A DNA stretch of 64,000 nucleotides from an uncultured Chloroflexia bacterium (GTDB lineage: Bacteria > Chloroflexota > Limnocylindria > Limnocylindrales > CSP1-4), in contig CAWJHK010000006.1 of NCBI GenBank assembly GCA_963842695.1, forward strand, positions 344,391 through 408,390, read 5' to 3'. The number at the start of each line of letters is the position of its first letter. Positions within the stretch are counted from its first letter, which is position 1. The notes under the pieces were generated by a model that had not been told where the DNA came from, ran no database searches, and saw nothing but the letters and a program-made list of their open reading frames with translations. Below, piece by piece: positions 33,042 to 52,015 of the stretch. The position numbers and the translations under genes were made by a program.

Positions 33042-33760
33042 ATGTGCGAGCACTTCGTGGCGCGGTCGGCCGCGCTCGTTCCGGCTCGACGTGCTGTGGC
33101 CGTTCACCGAGCGGCTGGAGCGCTTCGGGATCGCCGGCTTCGGCTGGGGAGCCTCCTGGCTCGGCCCGGACGGCCGGCTCGCCTCGTACCGCGACCTGCG
33201 AGCGTTCCGTGACGATCCCGGACGGGAGGATGTCGGGCCCGATCGAGACGACGGCCGCCCTCGTCCATCTCCGCCGTCCGTCGCGCCTCTCGACGCTGAC
33301 GGTGCCGGACACGCAGCCGTTCGACGACCCGGCCGGGCGCTATGCCTTCAGCCACAACGGCGACCTGCGCGATTACCGATCGCTCAGGACCGCGTACCGG
33401 GCTGCGGGCCGCATCCACGGCAGGGCCGACACGGAGGTCGGGGCGCGCTGGCTCGAGGACGCGTGGAGGGAGGACCTGCCGGTCGGCGAGCTGCTCTGCT
33501 CACTCCACGAGCGGTTCGGCGGCCAGGCGAACCTGGCCGTGCTGACCGCCGACGGGACGCCGTATCACTACGCAGGGAACGGGGAGAACCCGGTCTTCGC
33601 CTTCCGGCTCGACGGCATCGGGATCGCGTCGACCGGGATCTACTCCCTCGATCGGTCGCTCTTCCGCTACGTCGTTCCCGGCGCCCGGGAGCGACATGTC
33701 GTCCCGCTGCGGACGACCGTCACGCTCGACCGTAACGGGAACCGATCAGCCGCGTCATAG
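33042..33760 (+). pseudogene. class-II (Ntn) glutamine amidotransferase, YafJ-like; 2 frame breaks
   Basis: The N-terminus MCEHFVARSAA... carries the Cys2 nucleophile. The protein continues with FRLDVLWPFTERLERFGIAGFGWGASWL..., then ...TAALVHLRRPS...PDTQPFDD...FSHNGDL... The breaks are near 33078 and 33240. Confidence 0.75.
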
Positions 33761-38185: not shown

Positions 38186-39022
38186 GTGGCCGATGGAACC
38201 GTCATCATCATCGGCGGCGCGGAGGACAAGGTCCGCGACCGCGTGATCCTGAGCCGCTTCGTCTCGCTCGCCGGCGGCGAAGACGCGACGATCGCGGTGA
38301 TCAGCACCGCTTCGTCCCTCGGGCTCGAAGCCGGGGAACGGTACCGAGCCATCTTCGGCGAGCTCGGGGTCCGCAAGGTTCGGCCGCTCCACGCCGTGAC
38401 TCGCCCGCAGGCCAACGACGACGGCGCCGTCCGGGCGGTCCGCGACGCGACCGGCGTGTTCCTGACCGGAGGCAACCAGCTCCGGCTGTCCTCGACGATC
38501 GGCGGGACCCTGCTGGCCGACACCATCCTCGACCGATTCCAGCACGGCGCGGTCGTGGCCGGGACGTCGGCCGGAGCGTCGGCCATGTCGAGCCACATGA
38601 TCGCCTTCGGGGCGTCCGGAGCGACCCCGAAGCACCGGATGGCGCAGATCGCCGCCGGCCTCGGGGTCCTGCCCGGGGTCATCGTCGACCAGCACTTCCA
38701 GCAGCGGAACCGGCTCGGCCGGCTGCTCAGCCTGATCGCCCAGAACCCCAGCCTGCTCGGTCTCGGGGTCGACGAGGACACCGCCGGCGTGGTCGGCCCG
38801 GACCACGTGATGGAGGTCATCGGCCGAGGCTCGATCACCGTCGTCGATGGGGCTCGGTCGGAGACCGACGCCTGGGAGATCCACGGCCACCGCCCGTTGA
38901 TGATCAGCGGGGTGGTGCTCCACTCGCTGCCGTCGGGGTATCGCTTCGACCTGCGCCGGCGCGAACGTGTCGCGACGCCGACCCTTCATGCCCTCCCCGG
39001 CGGCGAGGCCGCCTCGAGCTAG
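38186..39022 (+). CDS. cphB: cyanophycinase (peptidase S51), no signal peptide
   Basis: The start is GTG. The product reads MADGTVIIIGGAEDK...FLTGGNQLRL...VAGTSAGASAM...GVIVDQHFQQRNRLGRLL...GLGVDEDT... TATCCT (38149-38154) and GGGAG lie upstream. Confidence 0.85.
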   Translation: MADGTVIIIGGAEDKVRDRVILSRFVSLAGGEDATIAVISTASSLGLEAGERYRAIFGELGVRKVRPLHAVTRPQANDDGAVRAVRDATGVFLTGGNQLRLSSTIGGTLLADTILDRFQHGAVVAGTSAGASAMSSHMIAFGASGATPKHRMAQIAAGLGVLPGVIVDQHFQQRNRLGRLLSLIAQNPSLLGLGVDEDTAGVVGPDHVMEVIGRGSITVVDGARSETDAWEIHGHRPLMISGVVLHSLPSGYRFDLRRRERVATPTLHALPGGEAASS

Positions 39023-39699: not shown

Positions 39700-40819
39700 T
39701 CAGGCGAGCTGCTGTCGGAGGTACTCCGCAACGGCGGCCGCACGGGCAGCCGTCCCGCTGAGACCGAGCTTCGCGTAGACGTTCGAAAGGTGACGCTCGA
39801 CCGTTCGAACGCTGAGCGTCAGGGCAACGGCGATCTGCTCGTTCGTCCGGCCCTCCGCGGCGAGCCGGAGGACCTCGACCTCGCGTCGCGAGAGCGCTTC
39901 GGTGATCCGCTCCGGGCGCTCGTCGTAGGCCTGTCGTTCGGGCTCGAGGAATGCCTCGACCTCGCCGATGAAGACCCCCCACGCCGGCTCGTCGGCCAGC
40001 AGGATGTGGTTCCGACTCTCGAGTGGCACGAGGCGCGCGCCCGGGATCAGCGAGGACACGCTGACGGCATTGTCGAAGGTGTTCGACCGATCGCCGATCG
40101 ACTGGAGCACGATGGTCGGGGCCGTGATGCGACCGAGGTCGTCCTCGAGGTCGACCTGCTGGCGGGCGATTTCGGCTGGCCACGGCGTTGGCCGGTGATG
40201 TCGACATCCGCTGGAGGTCGTCGAACCAGCGCATCTGCTCCTCGGTCGCGTCGGGGATGAACCTCGTCGTGAACACGCGCCGGAATGCGGGATCCTCCCT
40301 GGCCCAGCCGACCTCGATCATCTTCCGGTAGGTCTCTTCCTCGACGAGCTGTTCGGGCGTAAAGGCGATCGGTTCGCCGCAGACGGTGCCGTTCAGGATC
40401 AGCCGGCTGACGCGTTCCGGGTGGGCGATCGCGTAGGCCAGGGCGACGCCGGACCCGCCCGACATGCCGAGGAGCGCGAACCGCTCCAGGCCGGCCGCGG
40501 CCACGATCGTCTCGAGGTCGGCGAGGCGGGCTCCGAGCGAGAAGTCGTCGACCGTCCAGTCCGACAAACCGAAGCCCCGCTCGTCGTACCGGACGACCGT
40601 CGCGAGCGACCCGAGCTGCTCGAGGAAGTGACGCCAGACCGGGCTCTGCCAGTCGTACTGGAGGTGGCTGAGCCAGCACGACGCGACCACCAGCGGGGGA
40701 CCACTGCCGTGGACGGCGTAGGCGAGGCGGACGCCGTCCGGCGCACGGCAGAACTTGATCTGCTGGTCCCGCGAGCCGAACGGCCCTGCGGGCGCGACCG
40801 CTGTCGATCTGGCCGTCAT
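39700..40819 (-). pseudogene. alpha/beta-hydrolase domain fused to a C-terminal LuxR-type HTH; one frame break
   Basis: The N-terminal domain reads MTARSTA...IKFCRAPDGVRLAYAVHGSGPPLVV...FALLGMSGGSGVALAYA... (nucleophile elbow GMSGG). The C-terminal domain reads ...[44 protein letters not shown]. The break is near 40170. Confidence 0.8.
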
Positions 40820-40834: not shown

Positions 40835-40851
40835 CGGCGATGCTCAAGCCC

Positions 40852-40867
40852 GCCGGGCATGCCCGGC
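40852..40867. promoter_or_regulatory. perfect 16-bp palindrome GCCGGGCATGCCCGGC between the LuxR-type regulator and cphA
   Basis: It is centred in the 119-bp divergent intergenic region. It sits about 18-33 nt upstream of the regulator -10 and about 38 nt upstream of the cphA -10 candidate. Confidence 0.5.
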
Positions 40868-40904
40868 ACGGCGTGAGGTCGTATCCGTCGACCGGGGGAG
40901 CCGA

Positions 40905-40910
40905 TACACT
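40905..40910 (+). promoter_or_regulatory. -10 candidate TACACT for cphA (about 21-nt leader with AGGAGGG)
   Basis: The sequence is ccgaTACACTcggggtccgcagcgagcAGGAGGGcgacGTG. Confidence 0.35.
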
Positions 40911-40938
40911 CGGGGTCCGCAGCGAGCAGGAGGGCGAC

Positions 40939-43833
40939 GTGGCGCAGGCGGGACCCGCACGCCGGACCGCGAAGGCAAAGGCGACGGACGGCAACGGCTC
41001 CGGGACCTCGCGGTCATCGACCACCCGCCGCTCGACGCCGGCCCCGACGGCCGGCCCTGCCCCGACCCTGCGGATCCTCGAGACCCGGGTGCTGCGCGGC
41101 CCGAACTACTGGGCGCGCGAGCCGGTCATCCGCCTGCTGGTCGACCTCGGCGTCCTCGAGCAGTACCCGTCGAACACGCTGCCGAACTTCACCGACGCGC
41201 TGGTCGCGCTGCTGCCGACGCTCGAGGACCACGCCTGCTCGCTCGGTCGCCGCGGCGGGTTCATCACCCGTCTCCGCGACGGGACCTGGGCCGGCCACGT
41301 GGCCGAGCACATCGCGCTCGAGTTCCAGAACCTCGCCGGCACCGACGTCCGTCACGGCAAGACCCGCTCTGCCGGCAAGCCCGGCCAGTACAACTGCATC
41401 TTCGAGTACCGCGAGGAGGCGGTCGGGCTCGAGGCCGGGCGGATGGCCGTCGCCCTCGTCAACCACCTCGCCGCGCCGGACGACCCGGACGCCTTCTTCG
41501 ATTTCGCGCCGGAGATGGAGCGGCTCATCCGCCTCGCCGAGCGCCAGGCGTTCGGGCCGTCCACCCAGGCCCTGATCGACGAGGCGGTCAGCCGCGACAT
41601 CCCGTTCTTCCGCCTCGACCGCCACTCGCTCGTCCAGTTCGGGCACGGCGTCCACCAGCAACGGATCCGGGCGACGATGACCTCGCAGACCTCGGCGATC
41701 GGGGTCGACGTGGCGTCGGACAAGAGCCTCACCAACCGGCTCCTCGACTCGGCCGGGCTGCCCGTCCCACGGGCCGACGTCGTCGACACCGAGGACGGTG
41801 CGGTCGCCGTCGCGCGGCGGCTCGGCTTTCCGTGCGTCGTCAAGCCGCTCGACGGCAACCACGGCCGCGGCGTCCACCTCGACCTGCGGTCCGAGGAAGC
41901 CGTCCGCGCGGCCTTCCACGGCGCGCTTGCCCAGAGCCGCGGCGGCGACGTCGTGGTCGAGACGTACGTCGCCGGCAACGACTACCGCTGCCTGGTCATC
42001 GGCGGCAAGGTGGCCGCCATCGCCGAGCGCGTGCCGGCATCGGTCACCGGCGACGGTGAGCACACGGTCCGGGAGCTGGTCGACATCGCCAACAGCGACC
42101 CGCGGCGCGGGATCGGGCACGAGAAGGTGCTGACCCGCATCTCGGTCGACGCGGCGGCCGAGGAGCTCGTCCGCGCGCAGGGCCACGGATGGACGACGTG
42201 CTGCCGGAGGGGACCTGGGTCAAGCTGGCCCTGACCGGCAACATGTCGACCGGCGGCACGTCGATCGACCGGACGATCGAGGCGCACCCCGACAACGTCG
42301 AGATCGCCGAGACGGCCGCCCGGATCGTCGGGCTCGACGTGGCCGGCATCGACTTCATCTGCCCCGACATCGCCACGCCCGTCCGCGAGACCGGCGGAGC
42401 GATCGTCGAGGTCAACGCGGCACCCGGCTTCCGGATGCACACCCATCCGACCGAGGGCGAGCCGCAGTACGTCGCCCGCCCGGTCATCGACTCGCTGTTC
42501 CCGGCCGGGTCGTCGGCCCGGATCCCGATCCTCGCGGTCACCGGCACGAACGGGAAGACGACGACCGTCCGGATGATCGCCCACATCCTCAAGCTCATGG
42601 GCCGGCGGGTCGGGATGACCTCGACCGACGGCATCGTCATCGACGGCCGGCTGATCAAGAAGGGCGACATGTCCGGGCCGAAGTCGGCCCAGATGGTGCT
42701 CCAGAACCCGACCGTCGACACCGCGGTGTTCGAGGTCGCCCGCGGCGGGATCCTGCGCGAGGGCCTCGGCTACGACCGGAACGACGTGGCGGTCGTGACC
42801 AACGTCACCGGCGACCACCTTGGCCTCGGCGGGATCGACTCGATCGGCCAGCTGGCGAACGTCAAGGGCGTCGTCGTCGAGGCCGTCCCGCGCTCGGGGA
42901 CGGCGGTGCTCAATGCCGACGACAGCCACGTGTACCGGATGGGCCGCCACTGCGCCGGGCGGGTCGTCCTGTTCAGCATGGCCACCCAGAAGGGCGAGGA
43001 TGGCTACGACCGGGTCGACGGTCACACCAGCCGTGGCGGGGCGGCCTTCCGCCTCGAGCCGTCGAACGAGGGCGAGCTGATCGTCCTGCGGCTCGGGTCG
43101 CGGACGATGCCGGTCCTGTACACCCACCTCATCCCGGCCACGTTCGGCGGCCGGGCGCGGATGAACGTCGCGAACGCGCTGGCCGCCGCGGCCGCGGCAT
43201 GGGCCGCCGGGGCGCACCTCCACGACATCCGGCAGGGCCTGCGCACGTTCTCGACGTCGTTCTTCCAGGCGCCCGGCCGGCTGAACCTGGTCGATGTCGG
43301 TGGCGTCCGCGTCTTCATCGACTACTGCCACAACGTCGACGGCATGCGCCAGCTGGCCGACTTCGTCGAACGGATGATGGTCGACATGCCGAAGAAGTCG
43401 GGACGGGTCGGTCCTCCCGCCAACGGCTCGCGGACGGGACGGGCCATCGGCGTGCTCGGCATCCCCGGCGACCGCCGCGACGACGACCAGCGCGAATACG
43501 GGGCGATCGCGGCCGGCGCCTTCGACGAGATCATCGTTCGCGAGGACGCGAACCTGCGAGGACGCGAGCCGGGCGAGACGGCATCCAACGTCGTCGAGGG
43601 CGTGCGGGAGGCGCGGGCCGCGGGGACGGCACGGGTCGGGAAGGCGGAGAAGGTGCTCGACGAGATGGCCGCCGTGCGGGCCGCGCTCCGGCGCGCGATG
43701 CCCGGGGATCTCGTGGTGTGCTGCGTCGACGATGCGGTCGCTGTGTACCGCGAGGCGATGGCCGCAGCCGGCACCTCCCGCGGCGGGCACGGCCTTCGCG
43801 GACCCCGGCGAGCTGGAAGCCCCCGAGGGCTGA
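40939..43833 (+). pseudogene. cphA: cyanophycin synthetase (N + ATP-grasp G + Mur-ligase-like M domains); 2 frame breaks
   Basis: GTG 40939 follows a strong SD. The domain order is ...LRILETRVLRGPNYWAREPVIRL... (N), ...VVKPLDGNHGRGV...NMSTGGTSIDRT...EVNAAPGFRMH... (G), then ...ILAVTGTNGKTTT...TNVTGDHLG...LNADD... (M). The breaks are near 42187 and 43797. The reconstructed end is ...GTAFADPGELEAPEG with TGA at 43831-43833. Confidence 0.9.
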
Positions 43834-44043: not shown

Positions 44044-45801
44044 CTACCCCCGCCGCGGACGACCCTGGAGGCGCGGGACCAGCTCCGTCAGCTCGGATCC
44101 GACGTCGACCGGCCGCGCCCCGACCTCGTGCAGGAGGTCGAAGACGCCGTCCCGTTCCTCGTGGCACATCAGCACGATCACGCGAGCCGAGTCGGGGCGC
44201 CGGCCGTCGCCGCCCGCGCCCCCGTTGAGCTCGGCGCGGAGGGCGATCGTCTCGGTCTCGTAGACGGGCACGTCGGCAACGGATCCGCCGCCGGCGACCA
44301 CCCCGGCCAGCAGCTCTCCGACGACCGACTTCGCCGTCCGTCCGCGAAGGTACTTGCGGGTCTCCTTGATCGCGACACGCTGGGCTCGCTGGGCGGCGAT
44401 CCGGCCGATGCCGCGGAGCGTATCGTCCGGCCGGTCGCCGGCGGTCCCGATGATCGCGGTGATCGGAGCGGTCCTGCCGGCCGCACCCGCGGCGATGCCC
44501 TCGGCGACGTCGAGCACGGCCGCCACGCCCGCCTCGTTGTGGGCGAAGTCGACGATGACGACCCTGGCCCCCAGCCGGAACAGGTTGAGACGGCCCGGCG
44601 ACCGCTCGGCGCTCGGTGCGAAGTCGGTCAGGCCGTCGCGGACCTCGTCGATCGTCGCGCCGAGGCCTCGGGCCCCGCCGGCCGCCGCCAGCGCGTTGGC
44701 GACGTTGTGGCGGGCCAGGCCGCCGATCGTGATCGGGACCCGGCCGACCTCGACGATCTCGGTCACCGCCTCGCCGTTGGCCTCGACCATCGAGCCGTCC
44801 CGGACGAAATAGGCACGGCCGCCCCTCGATCGATGCCGGCGCACGACCGCGCGACCGGTCGCCATCGAGGCTGAACAGGGCGACGTGCGCCCGGACGCGG
44901 CGGGCCATCGCGGCGACGTGCGGGTCGTCGGCGTTGAGGACGACCCAGCCGTCGGGCTTCGTGATCCGGCAGATCGTCGACTTGACCTCGGCCAGCTCCG
45001 GGAGGGTATGGATGCCCTGGAGGTCGAGGTGGTCGGACGAGACGTTCGTCAGCACACTCGCGTCGTTCGACTCGTAGCCGACGCCGCGGAGGACGATCCC
45101 TCCCCGGGCGGTCTCGAGGACCGCCACCTCGACATCGCGCCGGGCAAGGACAATCTGGGCCCCGCCGGGCCCCGTCCAGTCGCCCGGGTCGACCATTCGC
45201 TCGTCCACGAGAACGCCGTCGGAGGTCGTCGTGCCGACCCGCCGCCCGGCCCGCAGCAGGACGTGGGTGATCAGCCGGGTCACCGTGCTCTTGCCGTTCG
45301 TGCCGGAGATCGAGACGAGCGGGATCGTCCGGCGGTCGTCGCGGATCCACTCGGGCGGAGTGGTCCGGGCCTCCGCGATCCGCTCCGTCCAGCGTGCGAG
45401 CAGCCGGTCCTGCGCCCCGGTCAGGCGGGCGCCGCGGGCCGGTGAGACGTCGCGCTCGGTCAGGGCAATGGACGCCTCGGTCAGCGTCAGCGCCCGCTCG
45501 GCGCCGGACCACGGAAAGGTCACGATCCAGTGGCCGGGGTCGGACGAGCGATGGACGCCCAGCCCGCGTCGTCCCTCGCCGTGATCCGCGCGCAACCGCC
45601 GGAGCCAGGCGACGATGGCCGCCACCTGGTCGGGCCAGTCGCGCGCCGGCACATTGGCGCCGAGCTGTACCAGCGCGTGGCGGCCCGGGTCGCGCTGCCC
45701 GTACCACGTCCGCCGGCGCCCGACCGCGACCTCGAGCTTGACCACCGGCTCGAGCCGGTAGACGTTGGGCCCCTCGAGCAGGCGGGTCTCGACCAGACGC
45801 A
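44044..45801 (-). pseudogene. cyanophycin-synthetase-like protein with N and Mur-ligase-like M domains only (no ATP-grasp domain); one frame break
   Basis: The N-terminus VRLVETRLLEGPNVYRLEPVVKLEV... parallels the CphA N-domain. About 190 aa later the M domain begins directly: ...IPLVSISGTNGKSTVTRLI...TNVSSDHLDLQG...VLNADDPH... The C-terminal lobe follows in a second frame: ...HNVANALAAAG...SPGRLNLF......VIVDFAHNEAG... The break is near 44868. I chose GTG 45801 over ATG 45847. Confidence 0.75.
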
Positions 45802-45810
45802 CGGTCCGGG

Positions 45811-45845: not shown

Positions 45846-47087
45846 ATGACGGCTTCGACCTCCCAGCTCCCCACGCCCGCCACGACCGAGCTCGACGCCC
45901 TCCGCGCGGCCATTGCGGCCGACCTGCCGGCCTACCTCGACGACCTCGAGGAGCTCGTCAACATCGATTGCGGAAGCTACACGCCCGACGGCGTCGACCA
46001 GATCGGGCGGTGGGTCACGACGTTCCTGGCCGAGCTCGGCGCCCAGGTCGAGGCGCGACCCGACCCTTCGGGCCGGTTCGGATCGACGATCGTCGGCACC
46101 ATCGACGGCCAGTCCGGCGGACCCCGGGCGCTGCTGATCGGTCACATGGACACTGTCTTCGACCCAGGGACAGCGGCGGAGCGCCCATTCCGCATCGACG
46201 ACGACGTTGCCTACGGCCCGGGCGTGACTGACATGAAGTCCGGGCTCCTGGCCGGCCTCTACGCGCTGAAGGCGATCATCGGGCAGCGCGGCGGGATGCC
46301 GTTCGAGCGGGTCGTCTTCGTCGCCAACCCGGACGAGGAGATCGGGTCGGTCACCTCCACGCCGCACATCGAGGCGCTGGCCGGCGACGTGGACGTGGCA
46401 CTCGTGCTCGAGTGCGCGCGAGCCAATGGCGACATCGTGTCCGCTCGCAAGGGGATCGTCGACCTCCGGATCGTCATCAACGGCCGCGCCGCGCACGCCG
46501 GCGTCGAACCGGAGAAGGGTCGCAGCGCGATCCTCGAGGCCGCCCGGATCGTCGAGGACCTGCACGCGCTCAACGGTCGGTGGCCCGACGTGACCGTCAA
46601 CGTCGGCGTGATCACCGGCGGCACGCGGTTCAACGTGGTTCCCGAGCGCTGCGCCCTGGACGTCGACATCCGTGCGACATCGCGGGCGGCCCTCGAAGCC
46701 GCGGAGGCGGAGGTTCGCTCGGTCGCGGCGGCGACCGAGGTGCCGGACACGACCGTCGGAGTCGAGGAGCTGAACCGCTGGTGGCCGATGGAGAAGCTCG
46801 AGCGGAGCGGACGCCTCGTCGAGCACGCCCAGGCCGTGGCCGGTTCGCTCGGCTTCGCGGTCGCGGACGCCTCGACGGGCGGTGCGTCCGACGCCAACAC
46901 GACATCCGGGATGGGTGTCCCGAGCCTCGACGGCCTCGGCCCGATCGGCGGCAACGATCATGCCCCGACGGAATACCTCGAGGTCGATTCGATCGTGCCG
47001 CGCACGACCCTGCTGGCGGGGCTCCTGCTGGCGATCGCCGCCGACCCGGAGGTTCTCGCCTGGCGCGACGGTCAGCCCGGAGGATGA
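45846..47087 (+). CDS. M20-family metallopeptidase (carboxypeptidase G2-like)
   Basis: The product reads ...ALLIGHMDTVF...GPGVTDMKSGL...FVANPDEEIGS...RKGI......GRAAHAG...GGASDAN... The frame is intact. Confidence 0.85.
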   Translation: MTASTSQLPTPATTELDALRAAIAADLPAYLDDLEELVNIDCGSYTPDGVDQIGRWVTTFLAELGAQVEARPDPSGRFGSTIVGTIDGQSGGPRALLIGHMDTVFDPGTAAERPFRIDDDVAYGPGVTDMKSGLLAGLYALKAIIGQRGGMPFERVVFVANPDEEIGSVTSTPHIEALAGDVDVALVLECARANGDIVSARKGIVDLRIVINGRAAHAGVEPEKGRSAILEAARIVEDLHALNGRWPDVTVNVGVITGGTRFNVVPERCALDVDIRATSRAALEAAEAEVRSVAAATEVPDTTVGVEELNRWWPMEKLERSGRLVEHAQAVAGSLGFAVADASTGGASDANTTSGMGVPSLDGLGPIGGNDHAPTEYLEVDSIVPRTTLLAGLLLAIAADPEVLAWRDGQPGG

Positions 47088-47485
47088 GCGAGGAGCCGGC
47101 CGGCCGGCGGCGGGTCTCGTCGGGCGGACCATGGGAGGCCGTCGCCGGCTACAGCCGGGCAATCGTCGTCGGCGACTCGTGCTGGGTCGCGGGTACGACT
47201 GACGCAGGGCCGGACGGTCAGTCGACTCATCCGGGTGACATCGGGGCACAGACGCGGGCGACCCTCGGGATCATCGAGCGCGCGCTCGGCGAGGCCGGCT
47301 TTGCGTTGACCGACGTCGTCCGCACGCGGATGTTCGTGACGGACATGACGCGCTCGGCCGAGGTCATCGCCGTCCACGGCGAGGTCTTCGGCGAGATCCG
47401 GCCGGCGGCCACCCTGGTCGGGGTCACCGCCCTGATCGAGCCGACGGTGTTGATCGAGATCGAGGCCGACGCTCAGCGCGGCTGA
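47084..47485 (+). CDS. RidA/YjgF-family protein
   Basis: The ATG overlaps the M20 stop (ATGA). The product reads ...YSRAIVVGD.CWVAGTT...GDIGAQTRATLGIIERAL.EAGF.L.DVVRTRMFVTD... Confidence 0.8.
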   Translation: MSEEPAGRRRVSSGGPWEAVAGYSRAIVVGDSCWVAGTTDAGPDGQSTHPGDIGAQTRATLGIIERALGEAGFALTDVVRTRMFVTDMTRSAEVIAVHGEVFGEIRPAATLVGVTALIEPTVLIEIEADAQRG

Positions 47486-47853: not shown

Positions 47854-48679
47854 CGCGGCCCGTCCCCGGTAGAGGTCTCGCCGTGGACGTGCGCATCGGG
47901 CATGAGGTACCGGTTCGCGGACTCAAGGCTGCCGAGAGGCGCCGTCTCCGCCGCAAGCGCCTTTGGAACGAGCAGGCCCGGCGAACGGCCCGACCACGCC
48001 GCCGGCGACGATCCCGATCGCCGGGCTGGACGCCAGCGCCACGCCCACGGCCACGCCCGCCCCGACGATCGCGGCAACGAGCTCGCGGCGACCGGTGATC
48101 AGCCCGACCGCCAGGCCGATCATCGCGGCCGGGAAGATGACGTCGATCCCGATGCGCGCCGGATCCGGGATCTGCGCCCCGAGCACGACCCCGGTCAAGG
48201 TGGCGAGGTTCCACGGGATGAACGTGCAGGCGATCGCCCCGACCCAGTAGCCCCACGGGTCGCCCCGGCCGATGCGCCGGAAGTGGCTGATCGCGAGGGC
48301 GAAGGACTCGTCGGTCAGGAAGTGCGCCATCGCCGCCCGGCGCGGCAGCCCGACATCCCGCAGCCACGGCGCGAGGGCGGCCGAGTAGAGGACGTGCCGT
48401 GCGTTGAGCAGCGCGGTCAGGACGATGATGCCCGGCCAGGCGAGGCCGCTGGCCACGTAGCCGACCGCGGCGAACTGGGCCGCGCCGGCGAACACGATCG
48501 TGCTCATCGCCATGGCCTCGACGACGGAGAACCCGGCCTCGCGGGCGGACAGGCCGTAGACGAACCCGAACCCCATCGCGGAGACGGCGATCCCGATCGC
48601 GTCGGTCGCCAGCTGCCGGCGGCTGGCCTTGAGGTCGGGGGTGGCGGCGTCGCTCAGCGCAGGTACGTCTTCCCGCACG
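47850..48679 (-). pseudogene. azlC: AzlC-family branched-chain amino-acid permease component; one frame break; start uncertain
   Basis: The product reads ...GFGFVYGLSAREAGFS..EAMAMSTIVFAGAAQFAAVG... The tail continues in another frame to a stop overlapping the azlD ATG. The break is near 47980. The candidate start GTG, near 48679, overlaps the upstream small gene. Confidence 0.7.
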
Positions 48680-48926
48680 TCCCGTCGCACACGACGAAGA
48701 CGGCTCGCTTCTCCGCCCCGTAGCCCGCCGCATGGAGGAGGCCGGCGCAGCCCTTCGTCGGGCACTTCCAGACCCACCAGCGCTCGTGCGCGTCGAGCGG
48801 CGTGGCCTCGGCCGCCAGCACGCCCGCAAGGTCGGAGCGGGCCTTCACGAGCCCTGCGATCCGCGTGGCGCGCTCCGCCTCGGATTCACTCGTGTATGGG
48901 TAGTTCTGGGCGACGTTCGAGCTCAC
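48654..48926 (-). CDS. small Cys-rich (zinc-ribbon-like) hypothetical protein, 90 aa
   Basis: GTG 48926 follows GGAG. The product has ...WKCPTKGCAGLLHA...VVCDGTCGKTYLR, a CxxxxC...CxxxC pattern. Confidence 0.45.
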   Translation of the reverse strand: MSSNVAQNYPYTSESEAERATRIAGLVKARSDLAGVLAAEATPLDAHERWWVWKCPTKGCAGLLHAAGYGAEKRAVFVVCDGTCGKTYLR

Positions 48927-50715: not shown

Positions 50716-52015
50716 GCCGACGCCTCTCCGACCCGGACGCCCGTGCCGTCGATGCCGTCGATCTCGTGCTCCTGGCTGCGCAGCCGGTTGAGCGGGACCA
50801 GTGCGACGACGAGCAGGCCCATCGTGGCGAGCAGCATCCCGTCGATGCCGCGCCAGTCGGCCGCGAAGCCGCCGATCAGGCTGCCGGCGATCTGGCCGAT
50901 CGCCAGGAACACCGAGTACAGGCCCATGATCGCGCCGCGATCGGCCGGGAAGCGCTCGGAGATGTCGGCCAGGAGCCCGAGCGCCGCCGGCGTCGCCCCG
51001 GCCAGGACGAACAGGCCGACCCCGGCGAGCAGCGATCGCGCCCGCCAGGAGCGCCAGCGGGAGCCCCGCCGAGTGGTTGACCACCAGCCCGCCCCGACGA
51101 GCGCCCCGCCGCCGATGATCCCGTACAGGATGATCGTCGTCCGCCGCATCGACTTGAAGCGGTTGCCCCAGTACAGGAGCCCGACGCCGAAGACGATGGC
51201 GATGACGATCGCGGCGGCGGTGATCTGGTTGGCATCGAAGCCCCGCATCAGGGTCTGGTCGGGGAACGCCGGGTTGGCCTGCGAGAACTGGAACAGCGAC
51301 TGGCTGAACCACAGCCCGATGCTGGCGTTGAGCGCGATCCAGGTCGGCGCCAGCAGCAGGACGTGCGACGAGCGGACGAGCGCGAGCGTACCGGCCGAAG
51401 CCGACGTGCGGCGACGCGACCGCCTCGGCCTCGCCGGCCGGATCCTTGACCCCGCGCCAGTAGATCGAGGAACGAGATCCCGTAGACGACGGCGTTGAGG
51501 AAGAACGCGTTCGGTCCGATCGCCTCGAACAGCTTCGGCGCGACGATGAAGCCCGACGCCGAGCCCGGCCAGCGTGGCGCCCTCGAAGCGGGCCGCCGCC
51601 TTGCCGCGCAGCAGCTCGTTGCCGGCGGTCGCCAGCGCGATGAAGCCGAGGATCGACGGGCACGCTGGCGGCGGTCGAGGCGCCCTCGAGCAGCCGCGTC
51701 GCGGCGAGGACCGGCAGCTGGACCGTCAGCCCGGTGATGATCACGGCGATCCCGCCGAAGATCGGGCCGTAGAGCATCACCCGGTGGTGGCCGAACCGGT
51801 CGGACAGGATGCCGAAGATCGGCGACAGGACCAGCTCGGACAGGTAGAACACCGCGGCGAAGATCCCGACGACGGTCGCGTCGACCGGCTCGCCACCGTG
51901 CGCCGGCAGGTCGGCCAGGTAGAGCCCGAGCATCGCGCCCGGTCAGCCCGGTGCTGAAGCGGAGCGTGAAGGTGCCGAGCAGGACGAACCGGAGGGATCG
52001 CTCCATCGGCGGCAT
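50712..52015 (-). pseudogene. MFS transporter; at least 5 frame breaks
   Basis: The N-terminus is MPPMERSLRFVLLGTFTLRFSTGLTG... Further fragments are ...SPIFGILSDRFGHHRVMLYGPIFGG... and ...FLAIGQIAGSLIGGFAADW..., spread over three frames. Confidence 0.7.

Follow-up and report, generated by a model that had tools for sequence, protein, structure and literature searches.

In a 64,000-nucleotide stretch of DNA from an uncultured Chloroflexia bacterium (assembly GCA_963842695.1, contig CAWJHK010000006.1, positions 344,391 to 408,390 of the forward strand; hereafter the window), a gene that converges on cphA1 encodes a shortened paralog of cyanophycin synthetase. Its product, which we call the N-M protein, consists of a CphA-type N domain (residues 1–158) that passes without a break into a Mur-ligase M domain of full extent (residues 159–585). 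It is virtually certain, in our view, that this architecture includes no ATP-grasp (G) domain. We propose that the protein is a catalytically competent, stand-alone paralog of CphA1, probably a cyanophycin side-chain ligase that acts in trans, and we put the probability of this reading at roughly 0.6.

A Pfam scan of the N-M protein returned only Mur_ligase_M (PF08245, residues 165–376; 81.8 bits, cut-off 24) and Mur_ligase_C (PF02875, residues 404–498). In the window protein the latter scored 27.0 bits (cut-off 28.4). A precomputed PF02875 match exists for most orthologs, and an AlphaFold model shows a complete C-terminal lid fold that aligns with those of CphA1 and MurE. When the protein was scanned against NCBIfam, residues 156–528 matched positions 475–837 of the CphA1 model TIGR02068 (E = 4e-113). 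The total score of 379.1 bits lies under the CphA1 cut-off of 850, and distant members of the family scored 358–408 bits. Solved CphA1 chains in the PDB matched residues 159–526 (phmmer, E = 3e-71), with the alignment confined to the M domain. The best-scoring Mur model was MurE (NF001126), which reached 106 bits against a cut-off of 373. The UDP-MurNAc-binding N-terminal domain of MurC-F is absent; the first 158 residues adopt the CphA N fold instead.

The Pfam scan that found seven ATP-grasp-type families (E ≤ 1e-3) in the neighbouring CphA1 found no ATP-grasp match in the N-M protein. In the AlphaFold model of the full-length ortholog P0001 (predicted local distance difference test, pLDDT, 90.3; predicted template modelling score, 0.91), the P-loop strand follows the N domain at once, and no leftover stretch could hide a further domain. 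The top Foldseek matches of this model were CphA1 structures (template modelling score TMq 0.75–0.78, ∼890 columns), in which N and M were superposed and G appeared as a gap; for MurE, the TMq was ∼0.53. An earlier, sequence-only reading of this DNA had held that no ATP-grasp module was present, and the scan, the model and the structural gap all bear this out. In CphA1, G lengthens the Asp backbone and M attaches Arg. Because the G domain is absent, the N-M protein is not expected to synthesize the backbone of multi-L-arginyl-poly-L-aspartate, the polymer made from Asp, Arg and ATP.

The same reading had noted a resemblance of the N-terminus to CphA, which profile comparison and fold search uphold. 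BLASTP aligned the N-terminal 161 residues to the N domain of the neighbouring CphA1 over 94 columns (33% identity, E = 1e-7), and an hhalign comparison of 21 family N-termini with 15 CphA1 N domains gave a probability of 98.1% (E = 1.3e-13, 121 columns). We also modelled the N-terminal 158 residues encoded in the window (pLDDT 87.7). The top 14 PDB matches of this model in Foldseek were all CphA1 or CphA2, with TMq values of 0.41–0.61 and a probability of 1.00 for the first eight. LuxS, the next fold, had a probability of 0.25 or less. The P-loop region begins at residue 164, ∼140 residues after a 25-residue opening, where ∼190 had been read before.

Two features of the N domain bear on what it might do. 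In SuCphA1, an inverzincin-type motif, Cx19HxxEH, makes primers (PMC9262961); the N-M protein has neither the Cys segment nor the HxxEH residues of this peptidase motif. The loop ExRxLxGPN, on the other hand, is invariant across the N-M family, and its GPNxY/F portion is retained. The corresponding loop of SuCphA1 is hydrophobic (Y14, I17) and makes contact with the M domain (PMC9262961). The N-M protein thus retains both of the domains that form the polymer groove of the M site.

Reading frame of the gene in the window

Translation of the open reading frames (ORFs) of the window placed all motifs quoted in the sequence-only reading (SISGTNGKST, TNVSSDHLD, NADD, SPGRLNLF, DFAHNEAG and the opening VRLVETRLLEGPNVYRLEPVVKLEV) on the minus strand. 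A single intact ORF had been implied, and this is not what we found: one surplus base at ∼44851 splits the gene. The first ORF fragment runs from a GTG codon at 45802, opens with VRLVETRLLEGPNVYRLEPVVKLEV and includes SISGTNGKST, TNVSSDHLD and NADD; the second, in another frame (44865..44044), holds SPGRLNLF and DFAHNEAG. Codons 1–317 thus occupy 45802..44852 in one frame, and the rest of the gene, including a stop codon that ends at 44044, occupies 44850..44044 in the other. The 5′ end had previously been set at 45801, one base short because of the frameshift.

The break was located by three-frame translation, by inspection of the sequence and by DNA alignment to the ortholog at locus L001. 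The run at this point is TCG-C-GCG. Deletion of the extra base yields a protein of 585 residues that reads through the junction as ...LDGDRSAVVRRH..., and the P0001 ortholog, 90% identical, is also 585 residues long. With the L001 ortholog as the query, tblastn recovered the two parts at 45805..44858 (frame −1) and 44868..44047 (frame −2). Every ortholog of the N-M gene is a continuous ORF.

The window has a G+C content of ∼72%, and tblastn with proteins from L001, a syntenic relative, revealed frame changes in three more of its genes. In addition to the N-M gene, these are cphA1, a GATase-domain gene (33079–33742, plus strand, two frames) and an MFS transporter gene (50751–52006, minus strand, three frames). 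The cphA1 gene passes from frame 1 to frame 3 at ∼42190 (between VRAQGHG and MDDVLPEG) and returns to frame 1 at ∼43785 (between TSRGG and TAFADPGELEAPEG, which precedes the stop codon), so that 1.6 kb in between lie in the other frame.

One frame break in the N-M gene and two in cphA1 could mean that the N-M gene is truly broken at ∼44851 and that the window holds a decaying cyanophycin cluster. We consider this unlikely. The MFS transporter and GATase genes, both unrelated and within 20 kb, are also frame-broken, as is typical of indel-prone assemblies; the two shifts in cphA1 compensate each other; flanking sequence to either side of every break keeps 78–90% identity to intact orthologs; and no nonsense codon or other disabling change was noticed in the translations. 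Since unrelated neighbours are shifted as well and the flanks stay close to intact orthologs, the frameshift in the N-M gene is most likely an assembly error rather than gene decay. Programmed frameshifting was considered and ruled out: the orthologs are continuous, the stretch around the site is prone to indels and poorly conserved, and genes unrelated to this one are shifted too.

Distribution and genomic context of the N-M family

A word-index search with the N-M protein retrieved 4586 proteins at E ≤ 1e-10, matches to the M domain of CphA1 included. The best 120 of these were all 583–622 amino acids long, 80–90% identical to the query, and from metagenome-assembled genomes (MAGs) of Chloroflexota/Candidatus Limnocylindrales. 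Intact orthologs of 583–598 amino acids number more than 100 in the Chloroflexota (Limnocylindria), where they are named 'Mur ligase family protein' by NCBI and 'cyanophycin synthetase' by JGI. An exhaustive search of representative sequences gave 9141 matches at E ≤ 1e-3. Many were relatives of 530–590 amino acids with 35–45% identity, aligned from residue 1, from Thermomicrobiales and Actinomycetota. Full-length matches in species-representative genomes came from Chloroflexia, Thermomicrobiales, Sphaerobacteraceae, Kribbella, Terrabacter, Nocardioides and other Actinomycetota, and one family member was found in an Antricoccus MAG. A second subfamily, of ∼560 amino acids, aligns over the M domain only, yet has an N-terminal RRLTGPN. 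Its hosts are Gammaproteobacteria, Myxococcota, Acidobacteriota and a Planctomycetaceae MAG. When the window protein and distant members were scored, no NCBIfam model was found to cover the family.

The M domains of the N-M protein and of the adjacent cphA1 product share 38.7% identity. When 93 M domains were placed in a neighbour-joining tree, those of N-M proteins lay outside the CphA1 group, and those of the partner CphA1s came out as one cluster. Low identity between the two M domains (only 39%), a wide family and a separate position in the tree argue against a recent deletion from the neighbouring gene, and the >100 intact orthologs and the relatives at 35–45% identity confirm the expectation that this gene is not a deletion remnant. 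Judged by its sequences, then, the N-M family is old and widespread, and the idea that the G domain was lost recently from the adjacent cphA1 can be rejected.

Some proteins of ∼570–620 amino acids, such as P0230 and P0205, group with the M domains of true CphA1, and P0230 carries a G-domain remnant, DKQLTKRIF...YPIVIKPENGNNGK. The G domain may have been lost or truncated more than once, or proteins of this type may be partial gene calls.

Full-length cphA1 lies 0–8 kb from the N-M gene in 16/16 subfamily-1 neighbourhoods for which the far side could be read (the P0001 contig and loci L001–L005, L008, L009, L011, L012, L017, L018, L082–L084 and L086). The two genes are usually convergent. A gene for an S51 cyanophycinase was detected in 14 of the 16, the exceptions being L009, which ends inside cphA1, and L084. 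Other neighbours vary fully: M20/RidA genes in Limnocylindria, fabG/inhA-like genes in Actinomycetes, and Rce1/ParB genes elsewhere. Subfamily-2 genes adjoin cphA1 in nine further places, in Gammaproteobacteria, Plesiocystis, Luteimonas, Acidobacteriota and the Planctomycetaceae MAG. Here the gene mostly follows cphA1 on the same strand, with convergent arrangements in L071 and L080. One of these places is the JGI contig that holds P0258. There, genes for Amidohydro_1, S51 cyanophycinase, CphA1 (947 amino acids) and the N′-M protein (582 amino acids) are called in a head-to-tail series on the same strand, with a one-base overlap between the coordinates of cphA1 and the N′-M gene. This overlap suggests that cphA1 and the N′-M gene of this contig are co-transcribed and possibly translationally coupled. 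We regard a functional link between the N-M family and cyanophycin metabolism as likely.

A trace of these genes can be recognized in a published metatranscriptomic study. Tetrasphaera MAGs were reported to contain a 'longer' and a 'shorter' cphA beside cphB, glgA and glgC, with the shorter copy transcribed at a lower level (PMC10687191). Two loci of Terrabacter (L011 and L017), which belongs to the same family as Tetrasphaera, are laid out alike, the short copy there being the N-M gene, and we infer that the 'shorter' cphA of Tetrasphaera is probably an N-M gene.

Catalytic residues and possible function

We compiled a conservation table from the M domains of 25 CphA1 proteins, 32 members of subfamily 1 and 16 of subfamily 2, and found 47 positions conserved jointly in CphA1 and both N-M subfamilies. 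They include K171 of the P-loop, the Mg ligand E230, D257-H258, K274, N290/D293, R404, D418/H421/N422, D456-R457, R486-G-R488 and E517. The P-loop, GTNGKST, fits the Mur-ligase pattern GxxGK[ST], and within it G167, T168, N169, K171 and T173 are invariant in all three groups. K499 of TeCphA1, the equivalent of K171, is essential, and roles have been described for K499, E558, R731 and H748 (PMC9427784); the equivalents of all four are among the jointly conserved positions. As the whole set of residues for ATP, Mg and acyl-phosphate is conserved, the N-M protein is predicted to ligate amides actively at the expense of ATP.

Systematic departures from CphA1 are few. Under strict criteria, the comparison of specificity-determining positions returned one difference, S214G, and others surfaced at relaxed thresholds only. 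These include a change in the CphA1 motif [KR]-E-D-x-[DN]-x-R-G-R, which reads x5-Y-[LE]-R-G-R in N-M proteins and is one residue longer. Within it, D481 is replaced by T/K or a hydrophobic residue, and D/N484 by Y. By alignment to MurE, the changed motif sits at what we take to be the place of the amino-acid-binding DNPR motif of that enzyme. With two acidic or polar residues lost at this place, the incoming amine or its binding may differ. We read this as a hint that the amine substrate or its binding mode has probably diverged from that of CphA1. N-M proteins have also gained R239, and a Glu conserved in CphA1, at alignment position 279, is Arg in subfamily 1. In approximate SuCphA1 numbering this Glu falls at about E607, and it may be the very E607 that touches the polymer at the N-domain site (PMC9262961).

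Four CphA proteins (P0235, P0215, P0250 and P0195) have the N-M-type pattern, Y/F-R-R-G-R plus one residue, in place of KED-x-[DN]-x-RGR. P0235 (883 amino acids) and P0215 (811 amino acids) keep the G region; P0250 and P0195 seem to be truncated at the N-terminus. This group might represent the lineage from which N-M proteins arose, or a convergent change in the specificity of the M site.

How might a G-less ligase function? In the mechanism we envisage, the partner CphA1 would supply a chain of cyanophycin or poly-Asp, ATP would be used to activate the β-carboxyl of an Asp residue on it, and an amine, Arg or another amino acid, would then be ligated to the activated Asp in trans. The outcome could be the filling of undecorated positions or the installation of a different side chain. 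The sequence-only reading had raised decoration of an existing chain, partnership with CphA1 and a different amino acid as possibilities, and these would fit both the synteny with cphA1 and the altered motif in the substrate region. The specific reaction, addition of an amine to the β-carboxyl of Asp on a polymer, remains a tentative proposal to which we give somewhat less than even odds.

Several points weigh against a trans-acting side-chain ligase. Its substrate and product are predicted from homology and synteny only. The M domain of the partner CphA1 is intact, which leaves no evident need for another Arg ligase. The window copy is frameshifted and, if the shift is real, non-functional in this strain. 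The tree of M domains is a rough one and carries no support values. Finally, the Pfam family PF18921 misses the N domain, and the isolated N-terminal 161 residues gave no Pfam match at E ≤ 10; homology of this region is instead shown by BLASTP, hhalign and fold search. One further thought, that the N-M protein compensates for a defective M domain in its partner, was ruled out by the intact M motifs of that CphA1.

Conceivably, the enzyme makes a small molecule, acting as a dipeptide or primer synthetase and not on a polymer. The chemistry of the M domain suits a β-Asp-Arg isopeptide bond, and the first steps of primer-independent synthesis by CphA1 are very slow (PMC9262961). We find this quite unlikely, however. 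The partner CphA1 has an intact Cx19HxxEH motif, for which a primer role is known (PMC9262961), and help with priming therefore seems needless; furthermore, retention of the polymer-anchoring N domain and of the loop at the N–Mcore interface points to a polymeric substrate.

It is also conceivable that the protein has no catalytic role and scaffolds or regulates CphA1, with N and M serving solely to bind the polymer or CphA1. CphA2, with its inactive M domain, illustrates that CphA domains can persist without catalysis (PMC10273328), and the M domain of the partner CphA1 already looks active. But the residues that bind ATP, Mg and phosphate, together with RGR, are invariant or nearly so in 48 diverse members from both subfamilies, which is unexpected for a purely structural function, and the M domain of the N-M protein is full length, whereas that of CphA2 is truncated. 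These data make a non-catalytic partner improbable.

Least credible, and in our estimation very improbable, is a Mur-type ligase of an unrelated pathway (a cell-wall peptide or another amide) whose proximity to cphA1 is historical: NCBI annotates members as 'Mur ligase family protein' only and the substrate-region motif is unlike that of CphA1, but the closest homologs of both domains are CphA1 and not MurC-F, the UDP-binding N domain is absent, and linkage to cphA1 holds across phyla while other neighbours change, one locus having overlapping cphA1 and N′-M coordinates on the same strand.

Returning to a side-chain ligase that works in trans, one can extend the proposal to the whole family. 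N-M proteins might constitute a third class of cyanophycin enzyme that works on chains made by CphA1, attaching something other than Arg or filling internal undecorated Asp residues. We offer this generalization as speculation, more doubtful than probable. If it is true, a polymer that resembles cyanophycin but differs from it chemically would be made by many Chloroflexota, Actinomycetota, Gammaproteobacteria, Myxococcota and Acidobacteriota.

Neighbouring genes and comparison with known systems

Positions of the N-M gene, its parts and the associated cyanophycin genes are collected below.

Table 1. Features of the cyanophycin locus, in window coordinates
Feature	Position	Strand	Basis or remark
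N-M gene, G-less cyanophycin synthetase paralog	44044..45802	−	ORFs, translations, ortholog match; 585 amino acids after removal of one base
CphA-type N domain, residues 1–158	45329..45802	−	BLASTP, hhalign, AlphaFold (AF2) N-domain model, Foldseek
Mur-ligase M domain (Mcore + Mlid), residues 159–585	44044..45328	−	TIGR02068, PDB, Pfam, conservation table
Mur-ligase P-loop GTNGKST, residues 167–173	45284..45304	−	Translation
Frameshift site	44847..44852	−	Extra base at ∼44851, between codon 317 (TCG) and GCG at 44850
cphA1, full-length N-G-M cyanophycin synthetase	40939..43833	+	Convergent with N-M gene; start uncertain, 40840–40939
Cyanophycinase, CphB-type S51 peptidase	38186..39022	+	TIGR02069, 264.9 bits against a cut-off of 126.6

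Once repaired, the partner CphA1 scores 1127.6 bits on TIGR02068 (cut-off 850) and matches PF18921, the ATP-grasp families and Mur_ligase_M/C. It carries the primer-generating Cx19HxxEH motif (C...HVAEH) and ends with the canonical ...GTAFADPGELEAPEG. The cyanophycinase gene is part of the conserved cphB-cphA1/N-M cluster. Between it and cphA1 lies a frame-split gene (39700–40819, minus strand) that, by eye, has an alpha/beta-hydrolase-like N-terminal part and a LuxR/GerE-type helix-turn-helix C-terminal part. As cphB and cphA1 are directly adjacent in relatives (P0001 contig, L001), this regulator-like gene looks like a local insertion.

Divergent from the N-M gene, and 43 bp away, are genes for an M20 peptidase and a RidA-family protein (45846–47485, plus strand). 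The peptidase is glutamate-carboxypeptidase-like and scores below all NCBIfam cut-offs. Relatives within the Limnocylindria keep the M20/RidA pair, and L086, too, has an M20 gene close to its N-M gene. Gene calls for the syntenic flanks in two close relatives included no IadA/IaaA-type dipeptidase, and the M20 enzyme could be the β-Asp-Arg dipeptidase of the cluster. Farther out, a 90-residue ORF with two short Cys-containing motifs, CPTKGC and CDGTC (48654–48926, minus strand), has no NCBIfam match; it is conserved (77% identity) between the GGT and AzlC genes, a position that it also occupies in L001 and in the P0001 contig. Scans of the window for tRNA genes and Rfam families were empty.

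We found no curated family model for a G-less CphA paralog, and no description of one in the openly accessible literature, the years 2024–2026 included. The only literature trace is the uninterpreted 'shorter copy' in Tetrasphaera (PMC10687191). Recognition of the family would correct current annotation, as pipelines of the JGI type label its members 'cyanophycin synthetase' and the metagenomic survey counted the 'shorter' cphA as a second copy (PMC10687191). Going by their domain content, N-M proteins should be unable to build the polymer alone, despite that label.

Among known systems, MurE and other Mur ligases (MurC-F, Mpl and the pseudomurein ligases) share with the N-M protein the central ATP-binding and C-terminal domains and acyl-phosphate chemistry, with Foldseek TMq values of ∼0.5 and NCBIfam E values of 1e-28 to 1e-31. 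They differ in that a CphA N domain takes the place of the UDP-MurNAc-binding domain, similarity to the M domain of CphA1 is far higher, and the genomic context is cyanophycin and not the cell wall.

The tandem cphA/cphA′ pairs noted in Betaproteobacteria (PMC10687191), such as those of Nitrosomonas europaea and Accumulibacter, likewise place a second CphA-type gene next to cphA1. In these pairs, however, both copies retain N, G and M regions, whereas N-M proteins lack G, are 530–600 amino acids long and form a separate group. Two tandem cphA genes, each with N and G regions, occur in L054, L058, L062, L065, L068, L075, L076 and L079 (Nitrosomonas europaea included), and in at least three of these loci (L062, L075 and L079) an M-domain query gives a weak match, or none, to the upstream copy. 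The betaproteobacterial pairs represent another way of arriving at a cyanophycin synthetase system of two genes.

CphA1 itself (TIGR02068; PDB 7LG5, 7LGJ, 7LGQ and 7WAE) has homologous N and M domains, the latter 38–45% identical to those of N-M proteins, and shares the P-loop, Mg ligands, DH, NADD, PGR, DxAHN, GDR and RGR among the 47 common positions. The relative arrangement of N and M is reproduced by the model of the N-M protein (TMq 0.75–0.78), and the genes are linked. What sets the N-M protein apart is the complete absence of the ∼325-residue ATP-grasp G domain, the lack of Cx19HxxEH, and the change from KED-x-[D/N]-x-RGR to x5-Y-L-RGR.

CphA2 (PDB 7TA5 and 8FXH) is, like the N-M protein, a reduced CphA paralog with a non-catalytic N domain, and its N domain is among the structural matches described above. 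Its G domain is active, whereas its M domain is truncated and inactive (PMC10273328), in agreement with the sequence-only reading; the enzyme polymerizes β-Asp-Arg (PMC10273328). The N-M protein is its mirror image, keeping a full M domain and no G. Cyanophycin biosynthesis is now described with two classes of enzyme, CphA1, in which N, G and M are all functional, and CphA2, with an active G and a dead M. A class with an active M and no G, encoded beside cphA1, would mean that side-chain addition is separable from growth of the backbone. It would bear on how the composition and completeness of the polymer are controlled, on why some bacteria make cyanophycin with side chains other than Arg, and on the engineering of tailored polymers for nitrogen recovery and biomaterials, uses that are under active development.

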